Assembly (NCBI RefSeq): GCF_004376175.1
Contig: NZ_SNUY01000007.1
Coordinates: 1-32,000 of the forward strand
Source of the DNA: Halalkalibacterium halodurans
GTDB lineage: Bacteria > Bacillota > Bacilli > Bacillales > Bacillaceae_D
DNA: 32,000 nucleotides
Reading direction: 5' to 3'
The notes beneath the pieces are model-generated. The model was not told the DNA's origin and ran no database searches. It saw nothing but the letters and a program-made list of their open reading frames with translations. This document shows, piece by piece, positions 2,258 to 13,648 of this stretch. Numbering within the stretch: the stretch's first letter is position 1; each line of letters starts with the position of its first letter. The translations under genes and the position numbers were made by a program.

Positions 2258-3355
2258 TTAATTTTTCTCTTTCGACAGGTAATGTTCTATAATGGCTCCA
2301 GCCATGTCTCGCCCCTTACCAATAAAAGGAAAATGCGATAGAGGAGCAGGGGAGAATTCCACCTCACTAACGATATGATTTGATGTAGTCGGTTTTTTGG
2401 TAATATCGTTTGCGATAAAATCAATCCCACCATACTCGATGCCTGGAATCGATTGAATCACCCGAACAGCTAACTCATGATAATCTGGGTGGGCAGTTTC
2501 TGTTACATCGATACTGTCTCCACCTGCTGAAAGATTTGATTGACTTCGCAATGTAACCTCTCGCCCCTTCTCGGGAACGTCCTCCAAGCTGATCTTTTGC
2601 TTCTCCAATAAGTCGAGTTGTTCCGGATCTTCTGGTATTAGATAATCAGAAAGATAAGGGTTCTTTGCCCGAAGTAAATTTTTTTGTTTTATCAATTCTA
2701 ATACTGTTGAAGTTCCATCCCCGGTAACATTTGCTCTTTTCCTATGTGTTGCAGAGATGACTTTATTACCTACTACGAAAAATCGGTAATCATCTCCACT
2801 TACATGCCGTTCAACTAATAAGCGATTTGTACTTTTCTTTCGCCGATATGCTTCACAGCCTTTATCCCATGCTTTTTTAAATTCCTCCAAGGTATGAATA
2901 TTGGTTGTGATACCTTTACCTCTCGCTAAACTTGTTGGCTTAACAACAACTGGAAATCCTAGCTTTTGTGCAAATTCAACCGCTTCATCATAGTGTTCAA
3001 TGCCAAAAACTTCTGAATCTACAACTGAGATCCCTTTCTTTTTAAGAATGTGCCGACTATCATGTTTACGATCACAGAGATTCATGCCTATTCTACTAGA
3101 ATCATTCCCATTCATATTATGAAAACCAAATTGATTACCTTCCTTACTTTCAATTATCAATAATCGACTGGAAAGACGGTCTACTTTTAATCCTCTGCTA
3201 ATAGCTGCATATTCGATGAGAGCAGATTTTATACCGATTCCCTTCCTTTTTTGTTCTTCTACAAACTCAGCTTCCTGTTTTAAAAATTTGCTTTCACCCT
3301 TTGGTTTATTCTCTTGCTGCCTTTGATTTTTTTTTAAAAATGAAAAAAAACTCAT
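2258..3355 (-). CDS. Short (365 aa) ATP-grasp ligase resembling the cyanophycin-synthetase G domain; no acylphosphatase domain, coiled coil or tail
   Basis: ORF track 2258-3370. I prefer the ATG at 3355 (MSFFSFLKK...), 9 nt after GGAGG (3365-3369). Motifs seen: FPVVVKPTSLARGKGI, RKRANVTGDGTSTVLELI, SNLSAGGDSIDVTE, GIEYGGIDFI. Confidence 0.85.
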   Translation of the reverse strand: MSFFSFLKKNQRQQENKPKGESKFLKQEAEFVEEQKRKGIGIKSALIEYAAISRGLKVDRLSSRLLIIESKEGNQFGFHNMNGNDSSRIGMNLCDRKHDSRHILKKKGISVVDSEVFGIEHYDEAVEFAQKLGFPVVVKPTSLARGKGITTNIHTLEEFKKAWDKGCEAYRRKKSTNRLLVERHVSGDDYRFFVVGNKVISATHRKRANVTGDGTSTVLELIKQKNLLRAKNPYLSDYLIPEDPEQLDLLEKQKISLEDVPEKGREVTLRSQSNLSAGGDSIDVTETAHPDYHELAVRVIQSIPGIEYGGIDFIANDITKKPTTSNHIVSEVEFSPAPLSHFPFIGKGRDMAGAIIEHYLSKEKN

Positions 3356-3423
3356 TCTTAATACCTCCAAATTTTATCCTCATGATACTGTGTACATCAT
3401 TCGAAGACAGATATATTTAAAGC

Positions 3424-3467
3424 TTAAAAACCACCTAAACCAAGCATATAAATTAGCTTGGTTTAGG
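3424..3467 (-). terminator. Strong rho-independent terminator ending the long minus-strand operon
   Basis: A perfect 12-bp stem is formed by cctaaaccaagc (3434-3445) and gcttggtttagg (3456-3467) with a 10-nt loop. On the minus strand the hairpin is followed by TGGTTTTTAAGC. It lies 69 nt after the stop at 3536. Confidence 0.75.
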
Positions 3468-12156: not shown

Positions 12157-12178
12157 AGAGAGTTTCCTCCAACACATG

Positions 12179-13648
12179 CTAATTAAGTCTTGCATCAAGT
12201 AAGTTTTTAAATGATTCAAATGACTTGCCATTTAATAAATCTGAAATTAAACGTTCTTCTGCTGCTAAAAATTCATCCCCAAGCCACCGATCCGTTTCAC
12301 GATTAAATTCGTCATAATTCCCAGGCTTCGGGGTAAATTCACCAAATACAAGCCCTCGACTCGTTTTCAGAAAATCGATTCGAATGAAAGGTACAGGAAT
12401 TTCAGAGCTAATAGAAGCCGCTAATTGGACTTCTTGTTCGGACGCTCCGTCACCTTTGAACAGGTCTCCATCATATTTTCCAGTCGTCATTTGTTTACCA
12501 TCAGCTGTCCACCAACAGTACGAAAGCTCTGGAAATCGTTGCACCTCAAGAATGATAGCAACCTTCCCATAAAAGCAATAAAATTTCAAATCTCGTGCCG
12601 GTCGAAATGTGTCTTTATCTTCTAACAGGAGCTCCTCGATCATCCATGAGTCTTCCTTAACCGAACGAGAGTCCAGATCTTCTTTCATACTCTCTATAAG
12701 AGATTCCCAGCTATTTAAGGTTTTCGAGCGTTTGACATCAAGAATATTCCCCTCAGTAAACACAAGGTATACGCCGCGGGAACCCGCACCATCTTGAGGT
12801 TTGATCACAATCCGTTCCTTTTTAGGTATCGTTGAGATCGTGTACGTGTCATCAGAGACCCAAGGCCTATCAATATGAAGGGAATCCATGAAACGATAGG
12901 CAACTTTTTTTTGATCGAGTAGCCATTCTGGTAAGATGGTCCCGAATTGTTTCTTCCTTAATCTTATACTTAAATTCGCTCGAAAGGAAGCGATTGATTT
13001 TAGAGAAATCGTTTCTTTCTCATCTACTTCTCTTACAATAAATTCTGGTACTTCTTCAGCATGCAACCCAGACAAAGCTTCCCGAAAAATTGGCGCTTTC
13101 ACATCTTGCTTCTCATTTTGATAGTGTCTCGCGGAAAGAAACAAAGCCTCACGATAAGCATTTTGTATTGAGGTCTTTGACTCGATCAAACGCCTCATGT
13201 ATTCCACCATTTGACCTTGCTCTTTCGCCCGTTTCACCGAGTGTAGGAGATGGTCACGATCCATCTTCCCTAGTGCAATCAGCCGATCATTCGCTTTGTG
13301 TGTTTCGTTTATTAGCTTTTGTTCGACATTCATTAATTGTTGACGAAGTTCCCTAAGTTCAAGATGAAGTTGCTCATTTTCTTGAATTAATTGTTGCTTG
13401 GCTTTTCCTAAAAAAGCCGTTTTGATACTTTTACAAACAGTTATTGTTTTCCGCCAAACAGCGGTATATTTCCATAACCGGCTTTGTTCAATTTTCTTTT
13501 GGTCCCTCCGCAGCTTTTTCTGCTCATTCTGTAACTCTCGCTTCTTCGCTTCATGCTTCATAAATAAGATTTGCAGCTCGTGTTCCCGTTCCTTTTCGTG
13601 CTGTAATTCACTCTGAATTCCTTCTTTTGACGGATACGTTTTGCTCAA
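12179..13648 (-). CDS. TupA-like ATP-grasp amidoligase with a long N-terminal coiled coil
   Basis: ORF track 12179-13657. GGAGG abuts the GTG, so I prefer the TTG at 13648, which has 8-nt spacing. The C-terminal half (IVIKPQDGAGSRGVYLVF, DLKFYCFYGKV, FIRIDFLKTSRGLVFGEFTPKPGNY) matches my memory of the TupA-like ATP-grasp family. The N-terminus is Glu/Lys/Gln-rich coiled coil and contains SRLWKYTAVWRK. Confidence 0.7.
   Translation of the reverse strand: MSKTYPSKEGIQSELQHEKEREHELQILFMKHEAKKRELQNEQKKLRRDQKKIEQSRLWKYTAVWRKTITVCKSIKTAFLGKAKQQLIQENEQLHLELRELRQQLMNVEQKLINETHKANDRLIALGKMDRDHLLHSVKRAKEQGQMVEYMRRLIESKTSIQNAYREALFLSARHYQNEKQDVKAPIFREALSGLHAEEVPEFIVREVDEKETISLKSIASFRANLSIRLRKKQFGTILPEWLLDQKKVAYRFMDSLHIDRPWVSDDTYTISTIPKKERIVIKPQDGAGSRGVYLVFTEGNILDVKRSKTLNSWESLIESMKEDLDSRSVKEDSWMIEELLLEDKDTFRPARDLKFYCFYGKVAIILEVQRFPELSYCWWTADGKQMTTGKYDGDLFKGDGASEQEVQLAASISSEIPVPFIRIDFLKTSRGLVFGEFTPKPGNYDEFNRETDRWLGDEFLAAEERLISDLLNGKSFESFKNLLDARLN

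Follow-up and report, generated by a model that had tools for sequence, protein, structure and literature searches.

Which enzymes build the peptide of teichuronopeptide (TUP), the classic alkaliphily wall polymer of Halalkalibacterium halodurans, known since the 1980s? To our knowledge, tupA is the sole gene that has been tied to TUP so far. The question is raised anew by a stretch of 32,000 nucleotides of H. halodurans DNA (contig NZ_SNUY01000007.1, positions 1 to 32,000; hereafter the window, meaning this whole stretch), in which tupA is followed by five paralogous ATP-grasp genes (2258-12156, minus strand), here named G1 to G5, whose products are closest to the G domain of cyanophycin synthetase (CphA). 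We consider it rather probable that these CphA-G-like ligases are the missing peptide enzymes of TUP, such that TupA would link the first residue and the ligases would extend an acidic peptide before export. The genes concerned are the following (the counts refer to the tupA-containing loci compared below).

12179-13648, minus strand: tupA, for the TUP biosynthesis enzyme; coiled coil at the N-terminus plus a TupA-like ATP-grasp domain
10513-12156, minus strand: G5, core type that comes first behind tupA in 63 of the 67 loci; His in place of the catalytic Arg in the acylphosphatase signature
8780-10438, minus strand: G4, core type that comes second behind tupA in 62 of the 67 loci; His in place of the catalytic Arg in the acylphosphatase signature
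7100-8731, minus strand: G3, with an intact acylphosphatase signature (VTGKVQGVGYR ... N), coiled coil and tail
3536-5119, minus strand: G2, ATP-grasp with a degenerate acylphosphatase-fold domain, coiled coil and the tail WKVTKPLR
2258-3355, minus strand: G1, short ligase of 365 aa with the CphA-G-like domain only, lacking the acylphosphatase domain and the tail

The tupA product (489 aa) scores 316.7 bits against PF14305 in a Pfam search (cut-off 25), is an exact match to WP_134228867.1, an H. halodurans protein annotated as 'teichuronopeptide biosynthesis enzyme TupA' (the start codon is non-ATG, and the match was obtained with the start read as Met), and shares 99.2% identity and a common 90% cluster with TupA of strain C-125 (BAB07375.1/Q9S0T1). 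An earlier reading of this DNA, made from the letters alone (the sequence-only reading), had described the gene as ending in a TupA-like ATP-grasp module, which is correct; the gene is tupA itself. Since it is, the window is, judged by its sequence, the TUP biosynthesis locus (tupA cluster) of this alkaliphile, in a strain other than C-125.

In C-125, TUP comprises poly-gamma-L-glutamate together with polyglucuronate (PMC8153356, PMC3815933, reviews), with glutamate chains that are short and all-L (reviews), and the pgs/cap (pgsBCA) operon is absent from the genome (review). Given this absence, a 2013 review argued that an unidentified ATP-grasp system must make the poly-gamma-L-glutamate. Members of the TupA-like family are commonly regarded as enzymes that decorate surface polysaccharides with amino acids (PMC13419641). 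The TupA-like domain of C. jejuni Cj1438C forms an amide at the C6 carboxylate of glucuronate, with serinol phosphate or ethanolamine phosphate as the amine; in this system, the growing-end sugar is amidated, and the amidation is required before the next sugar is added (PMC11800379). TupA differs from Cj1438C in its long N-terminal coiled coil, and the substrates of Cj1438C are small amines, not an amino acid or a peptide. No reaction assigned to TupA itself was found in the literature searched, and a sequence search of the Protein Data Bank (PDB) with TupA gave chance-level matches only.

The five ATP-grasp genes lie where the sequence-only reading had placed them, all on the minus strand. 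The longest open reading frames (ORFs) begin slightly upstream of the starts listed above; these starts, which are those of the sequence-only reading, agree with gene calls of 547, 552, 543, 239 and 489 aa in near-identical contigs of H. halodurans. In an alignment of the five paralogs, the block FPM.G.(A/P)R(D/N)(I/V)P.AI(I/V)DYYFPETK is exact in all four long ligases, as had been claimed; three short blocks, thought to be common to all five, match exactly in most paralogs but only approximately in G1 (PVVVKP, RKRANV, NLSAGGDSIDVTE) and in G5 (10513-12156; NISIGGDPVDQLD). Pairwise identity is 40-53% among the long ligases and 34-36% between G1 and the long ones.

Pfam recognizes only generic ATP-grasp families in the five ligases, together with PF00708 in the four long ones. 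Against NCBIfam, the nearest family for all five is cyanophycin synthetase, with 208-229 bits over model positions ~147-478 of 871, compared with full-length cut-offs of 850 (TIGR02068) and 877 (NF010623). The PDB sequence search leads to residues 214-482 of CphA1 (7lg5, E 3e-41), and an AlphaFold model of G3 (mean pLDDT 85.9) has CphA2 and CphA1 as its best folds (Foldseek E 1e-22 to 1e-24), followed by GshF (E ~4e-22), with RimK, LysX and Ddl at E 1e-9 to 1e-11 only. Profile, PDB sequence and fold thus agree with the CphA1 G-domain pattern noticed in the sequence-only reading. The ligases share with the G domain of CphA1 and CphA2 (7lg5, 7wae, 7ta5) the ATP-grasp fold with G-core, lid and omega modules, and are 24-31% identical to it over the aligned region. 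Unlike those enzymes, they lack the N domain (the alignments start at CphA position ~142-208, and the short N-terminal regions have no match) and the Mur-ligase-like M domain, of which, as the sequence-only reading had stated, Pfam and NCBIfam find none; in the long ligases, what follows the G domain is an acylphosphatase-fold domain, then a coiled coil, with a basic tail at the end.

Placement in a characterized family with an unrelated product, such as Ddl, RimK or glutathione synthetase, was examined and rejected. The next-best NCBIfam models are GshF and Ngg (E 1e-32 to 1e-56), with RimK, LysX and Ddl much lower and all of them far below their cut-offs (RimK, 53-91 bits against 143; the best Ddl model, 33-51 bits against 243), and the curated cut-offs leave the five ligases outside CphA1, GshF, Ngg, RimK, Ddl, LysX and prokaryotic GshB alike. 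GshF and Ngg belong to the same ATP-grasp clade and both add an amino acid to a peptide carboxylate, but the window ligases differ from them by the lack of a GshA or GNAT partner domain, by the low scores and by the genomic context. In databases, the ligase family is annotated only as 'acylphosphatase'. The literature searched, outside which most subscription journals lie so that earlier work is possible, assigns no role to these ligases; the combination 'ATP-grasp + acylphosphatase + cyanophycin' returned nothing, and 'ATP-grasp + acylphosphatase' only unrelated work.

The ligases are linked to TUP by their conserved position. We retrieved 73 loci through the ligase, one genome per species, from Salinicoccus and from halophilic and alkaliphilic Bacillaceae, and set their ORFs against the window proteins. 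Among the genera are Oceanobacillus, Virgibacillus, Lentibacillus, Evansella, Salipaludibacillus, Gracilibacillus, Thalassobacillus, Amphibacillus, Alkalibacillus and Salinicoccus. A tupA gene is present in 67 of these loci; in the remaining six, the ligase match lies on a short contig or has hardly any upstream sequence, or none. The order [GT2]-TagG-TagH-GTb-GTa-TupA-ligase-ligase is near-invariant, with the G5-type and G4-type ligases in the positions given above, TagH in 58 and GTb in 59 of the 67 tupA loci (GTa and GTb are two large glycosyltransferases). The linkage of the ligases to a TagGH-like exporter, two large glycosyltransferases and TupA is conserved across dozens of genera. Each locus has between 2 and 9 ligase ORFs, most often 3, although flank length and ORF fragmentation make this count approximate; CphA1 and CphA2, by comparison, are encoded by a single storage-polymer gene.

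The active sites are compatible with ligase activity. G3 was mapped onto CphA1 through the PDB alignment, with residue roles taken from PMC9427784. In CphA1, K261 binds the ATP phosphates, R309 the acyl-phosphate/oxyanion, and D431 and E450 magnesium; R323, N394 and S396 bind the carboxylate of the side chain and delimit the pocket for the incoming aspartate; E215 touches the last primer unit, and H267 and R458 bind the alpha-carboxylate of the incoming aspartate (PMC9427784). The equivalents of K261, R309, D431 and E450 and those of R323, N394 and S396 are invariant in all five paralogs, and all of these seven except S396 are also invariant in a 16-sequence alignment of the family, whereas E215, H267 and R458 have equivalents that vary among the paralogs. 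This pattern fits active ligases for acidic amino acids that differ in acceptor or donor register, and it would be weak evidence for the substrate class. As in CphA1 and CphA2, the expected reaction would be conversion of a terminal carboxylate to an acyl-phosphate, followed by repeated addition of an acidic amino acid.

The additional domains of the long ligases are of two kinds. PF00708 is found in all four (35.8-72.4 bits, cut-off 22.5), and in the G3 model the acylphosphatase-fold unit is beta-alpha-beta-beta-alpha-beta (residues 389-464). A search for PF00708 had been suggested by the sequence-only reading; the domain is there, but three of the four have a degenerate form of the catalytic signature (VxGxVQGVxFR plus Asn), which among the window ligases is intact in G3 only and is lost in G2. 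The distinction holds among orthologues: the signature Arg and Asn are both 100% conserved in G3-type ligases (n=23), while the Arg is replaced by a conserved His in 96% of 65 G5-type and 93% of 64 G4-type orthologues. By analogy with the N domain of CphA1, the acylphosphatase-fold domain may be a module for binding an anionic polymer.

The second addition is C-terminal: in each of the four long ligases, the chain closes with a long helix, as predicted, and then SW(K/R)xTxP(L/I)R. The motif W(K/R)xTxP(L/I)R forms the C-terminus of 171 of 266 ligase ORFs and, under a strict pattern, is found near the N-terminus of 23 of 68 TupA orthologues; among other long ORFs, it occurs in 9 of 204, all proteins of ~400 aa with the motif at the C-terminus. 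Six of these nine were searched in Pfam and are further ATP-grasp ligases, YheC/D-like and ATPgrasp_ST. The tail segment is a basic amphipathic helix with a net charge of +3 to +4 and a hydrophobic moment in the 86th-99.8th percentile of its own protein. We infer from these features that the tail and coiled coil are a common membrane or scaffold tether at the site of lipid-linked glycan assembly. YheC/D-like or ATPgrasp_ST ligases with a C-terminal coiled coil and the tail were observed in other genera at L006:18944-20221, L008:16071-17453, L016:8619-9836, L033:12823-14004, L045:16120-17340 and L052:16174-17415 (locus and coordinates).

The part of the locus distal to G5 varies among strains of H. 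halodurans, and in the window it contains, in addition to ligases, two genes for putative stereochemistry-changing enzymes.

2000-10634, no strand assigned: low-GC variable cassette (G4, G3, CapA-like gene, racemase, G2, G1), replaced in C-125-type strains
5915-6973, minus strand: CapA/PgsA-like gene (PGA_cap), PF09587 242.7 bits
5144-5863, minus strand: racemase, pyridoxal phosphate-independent, aspartate-racemase type

The GC content of the cassette is 34-38%, compared with 41-47% upstream, and the drop coincides with the divergent block. Over 18826-10634, a complete H. halodurans genome (L074) matches the window with 99.5% identity, and it diverges beyond; the breakpoint, at ~10634, lies in the 3' end of the G5 gene. 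Past it, L074 has two other ligases (529 and 551 aa) and then nucleotidyltransferase, Bac_transf and epimerase genes, with no CapA and no racemase at the locus. The C-125 proteins BAB07373 and BAB07372 fall in the clusters of the L074 ligases, and therefore C-125 has the L074 type. BAB07373 is G2-type (47% identity to G2) and BAB07372 G4-type (72% identity to G4), so that the order in C-125 is tupA followed by G5-type (BAB07374), G2-type and G4-type ligases, again without CapA or racemase; the lack of a stereochemistry-changing enzyme matches the all-L product of this strain. The window type is present in the isolates L075 and L076. The G3 gene also occurs (judged from adjacent accession numbers) in isolates that have the same TupA as C-125, and therefore the cassette swap looks recent. 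The window cassette is an alternative, probably horizontally exchanged one and, going by its predicted enzymes, probably adds D-residues to the peptide.

The comparison with C-125 also bears on the proposal in the sequence-only reading that each paralog adds or extends one residue. This cannot be true of every one of them, because C-125 makes its polymer with only three ligases; therefore, at least one ligase acts repeatedly.

Both of the other cassette genes belong to the families named in the sequence-only reading. The racemase matches PF01177 with 119.5 bits, its translation has the two catalytic cysteine motifs (IPCMTAH and GCTE), and its best PDB match is the P. horikoshii aspartate racemase (1jfl, E 3e-52), compared with 2e-7 for glutamate racemase, which makes it an aspartate-type member of the Asp/Glu family. 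Its substrate is not settled by the models, given that both TIGR00035 (186 bits, cut-off 93) and the cysteate racemase CuyB (209 bits, cut-off 190) pass. In enterococci and lactococci, an ATP-grasp D-aspartate ligase is encoded beside an aspartate racemase and serves a wall component. In the window, too, a ligase gene adjoins an aspartate-type racemase gene; the enterococcal and lactococcal enzymes modify a peptidoglycan precursor, whereas the window system is a glycopolymer one.

The CapA-like protein, in which no N-terminal hydrophobic anchor is visible, has as its only PDB relatives the entries of the lasso-peptide C-terminal epimerase MslH (8gq9, 8gqb, 8ith). It keeps the equivalents of the H88/D91 dyad, of H295 and of the metal ligands E44, N87 and H259, with Gly in place of H261 (six of the seven alignable residues; MslH D11 has no alignable position), but scores only 47.8 bits against the MslH model, the cut-off of which is 700. 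The discoverers of MslH put forward CapA as a peptide epimerase in polyglutamate synthesis, as a proposal rather than a result (PMC8179263). In four proteins (P0028, P0052, P0057 and P0117), a G3-type ligase (residues 1-476) is fused to a CapA-like domain; despite these fusions, CapA and G3-type ligases do not co-occur above expectation across the loci (p = 1.0). A CapA-like gene is present in 32 loci and a same-strand racemase in six. In 25 loci, CapA is succeeded by a G2-type ligase (same strand, 16; opposite strand, nine), where 'G2-type' is a best-hit label for divergent ligases (30-60% identity). After the racemase comes a ligase of the G2-type or G1-type, and the G1-type co-occurs with the racemase (Fisher p = 0.0016).

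Upstream of tupA, the window encodes the parts of an ABC-transporter-dependent wall glycopolymer system, namely an ABC-2 permease, an ATPase, polymerizing glycosyltransferases and a wall-polymer ligase.

13671-16346, minus strand: GTa, large glycosyltransferase with GT2 and GT4-type domains and an N-terminal coiled coil; TuaG-like (NCBIfam)
16321-18867, minus strand: GTb, paralogous large glycosyltransferase with two catalytic domains
18884-20488, minus strand: TagH-like ABC ATPase, 534 aa, two nucleotide-binding domains
20504-21274, minus strand: TagG-like ABC-2 permease, start chosen by the ribosome-binding site GGTGGAG
21492-24579, minus strand: three glycosyltransferase genes (GT2, GT4, GT4), upstream and syntenic in several other genera
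28401-29315, plus strand: LytR-CpsA-Psr (LCP) wall-polymer ligase, PF03816 181 bits

The GT2 domains of the large glycosyltransferases are nearest to the heparosan synthase PmHS2 (8vh7, E 1e-22 for GTa) and the chondroitin synthase K4CP (2z86), and they match regions of these enzymes that we take to be their glucuronosyltransferase domains. The TagH-like ATPase has its two nucleotide-binding domains in one chain and lacks the extra C-terminal domain usual in TagH/Wzt. The LCP gene is the one that the sequence-only reading had noted nearby. Beside it, and thus next to an ABC-transporter-type locus, 25995-28218 (minus strand) encodes a CpsB-type phosphatase, a BY-kinase and a Wzz-like modulator, a set of regulators typical of Wzy-dependent polysaccharide synthesis. 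Two wall-binding proteins are encoded by the flanking genes: a partial secreted one with eight PG_binding_1 repeats (3-2012, minus strand) and one with three PG_binding_1 repeats and an NlpC/P60 peptidase domain (29412-30686, minus strand).

The arrangement of these genes and of the two signals below makes a single transcription unit of ~17.7 kb, from tagG to G2, a plausible prediction.

3434-3468, minus strand: intrinsic terminator of the long operon, with a 13-bp stem, a 10-nt loop and GGUUUUU
21410-21466, minus strand: promoter-like site TAGACA-16-TGtGATAAT and leader hairpin upstream of tagG, consensus matches only

From tagG (21274) to 3536, the gaps between the same-strand genes are 22-126 nt, the range given in the sequence-only reading, or the genes overlap. 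The strong terminator reported there at 3434-3467 is reproduced as a hairpin at 3468-3434 (free energy, dG, -21 kcal/mol, z -4.4) followed by a U-run, and, as had also been said, no hairpin terminator precedes it from 21274 on: a consensus scan of 21274-3536 gives only weak intragenic terminator-like sites at chance frequency (21, with 15.5 +/- 4.0 expected). In this promoter and terminator scan, sites are at or below chance frequency, and the real terminator is missed owing to its 10-nt loop. Since G1 lies beyond the terminator, it is a predicted separate transcription unit outside the long operon; a second hairpin is found beyond G1 (~2235-2205). In the tagG leader, the promoter-like site (21466-21439) is followed by a hairpin (21428-21410, dG -12.3 kcal/mol, z -4.0) and a U-rich stretch, and this hairpin may be an attenuator. 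An Rfam scan of the window, the tagG leader included, gave no match, and the 126-nt gap between G3 and CapA has no stable structure (z +1.2). Another promoter-like sequence, TTGAGG-18-TATAAT, occurs in the G5-G4 gap (10437-10466, minus strand), just inside the variable cassette.

We propose the following scheme, in which every enzymatic step and its order is inferred from the gene identities, domain architectures, catalytic-residue conservation, synteny and cassette swap that were directly observed. Glucuronate would be polymerized on a lipid carrier, on the inner side of the membrane, by the two large glycosyltransferases, both of which combine an inverting GT2 domain with a retaining GT4-type one. 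TupA, as an amidoligase, would form an amide between the first acidic amino acid, through its amino group, and a glucuronate residue at the C6 carboxylate. The CphA-G-like ligases, in the manner of the G domain of CphA, would then phosphorylate the carboxylate at the peptide end and add the next acidic amino acid. The conserved pair of G5-type and G4-type ligases would carry out repeated glutamyl extension, yielding poly-gamma-L-glutamate in C-125, and the variable extra ligases would add, or cap with, further residues. The coiled coil and basic amphipathic tail would keep the ligases at the membrane-bound assembly site, the TagGH-like pump would export the finished polymer, and the LCP enzyme would attach it to the wall. 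In the window strain, a D-amino acid, with D-Asp the likeliest, would come from the aspartate-type racemase, and the CapA-like protein, as a relative of MslH that is fused to the G3-type elsewhere, would epimerize the growing peptide end. It follows that this strain should have a peptide unlike the all-L-glutamate one of C-125.

Several points weigh against this scheme. No experiment ties the ligases to TUP, for which there is genetic evidence for tupA only, and the reaction ascribed to TupA is modeled on that of Cj1438, with its small-amine substrates. The conservation of R323, N394 and S396 may be general to the ATP-grasp clade rather than a mark of acidic substrates. CphA1 chemistry activates a backbone alpha-carboxylate, so that a gamma-linked product needs another register; two conserved ligases are hard to explain for a homopolymer; and the acylphosphatase-fold domain has no assigned role in the model. 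Neither a UDP-glucose dehydrogenase nor an initiating lipid-carrier phosphotransferase is present among the window ORFs searched. Finally, the 'G2-type' label spans divergent ligases, and therefore the module assignments based on it are soft.

The order of the steps is the first matter on which an alternative has to be considered. The ligases might first assemble an acidic peptide that is free in the cytoplasm, with a free amino acid as the starter, and TupA might couple the N-terminus of this peptide to a glucuronate carboxylate last. The chemistry suits either order, the position of tupA ahead of the ligases in the operon is uninformative on the order of reactions, and most CphA1 enzymes are reported to be self-priming and to need no exogenous primer (PMC9262961). 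Nevertheless, in the Cj1438 system the amidation takes place on the growing-end sugar, before the next sugar, and the membrane-type tail common to the ligases and TupA suggests action at a membrane-bound polymer, so that we regard the reversed order as unlikely, if a serious contender. Alternatively, each ligase could amidate uronic carboxylates directly with a single amino acid, so that a decorated glucuronan would arise, with the polyglutamate coming from elsewhere. The number and type of ligases do vary by locus, as might be expected of decoration enzymes, and amino-acid amides of uronic acids are found in other surface polysaccharides (PMC13419641). However, such a reaction is that of the TupA-like family, which is already represented in the locus; the nearest characterized relatives of the ligases (CphA1/2, GshF, Ngg) all extend a peptide carboxylate; and C-125, which lacks pgsBCA, has true poly-gamma-L-glutamate chains, all of which renders direct decoration improbable. 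An unrelated cytoplasmic product (a storage polymer, protein modification of the RimK kind or an osmolyte peptide, for instance N-acetylglutaminylglutamine amide), encoded here by chance or through co-regulation, would suit hosts that are halophiles or alkaliphiles and recalls the moderate match to the Ngg model (E 1e-33 to 1e-45), but is very improbable considering the failure of every curated cut-off, the fixed gene order after tupA in many genera, the tail motif common with TupA and the lack of a GNAT or amidotransferase partner.

Beyond the proposal that the ligases make the TUP peptide, a more general reading can be put forward tentatively; we think it possible, if somewhat doubtful. The locus may represent a mode of glycan-anchored, non-ribosomal peptide assembly by ATP-grasp ligases only, in which at least four families (CphA-G-like, TupA-like, YheC/D-like and ATPgrasp_ST) would be brought to one membrane site by the coiled coil and tail. 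The conserved pair would polymerize glutamate on polyglucuronate, and exchangeable cassettes of ligases, racemase and a CapA-type C-terminal epimerase would write strain-specific variants, including D-residues.

The system differs from the known polyglutamate synthetases. It resembles PgsBCA/CapBCA in the product class of C-125, poly-gamma-glutamate, and in the PgsA/CapA-family protein of the window type. Unlike its counterpart in those systems, the CapA-like protein has no visible anchor, is absent in C-125 and is fused to a ligase in some species. A PgsBCA system in the window was considered and excluded, as no PgsB (the Mur-ligase-like amide ligase) or PgsC domain is found in any window ORF searched.

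The TUP polymer and tupA were known before; what is new is the candidate CphA-G chemistry in a new architecture and context, and the modular, strain-variable organization. The genes beside tupA, conserved with it in 67 loci, are concrete candidates for TUP peptide synthesis. If the proposal is true, they would provide a second, PgsB-independent route to polyglutamate, relevant to biopolymer production, and cyanophycin-synthetase-type chemistry would reach glycan-linked peptides. The C-125-type and window-type cassettes would then be a natural experiment on peptide composition and chirality. Should the more tentative reading of assembly by ATP-grasp ligases only also hold, this would be, in effect, a system of peptide 'serotypes' in the wall polymers of Gram-positive bacteria, and the CapA family would have its first assigned role outside PgsBCA.

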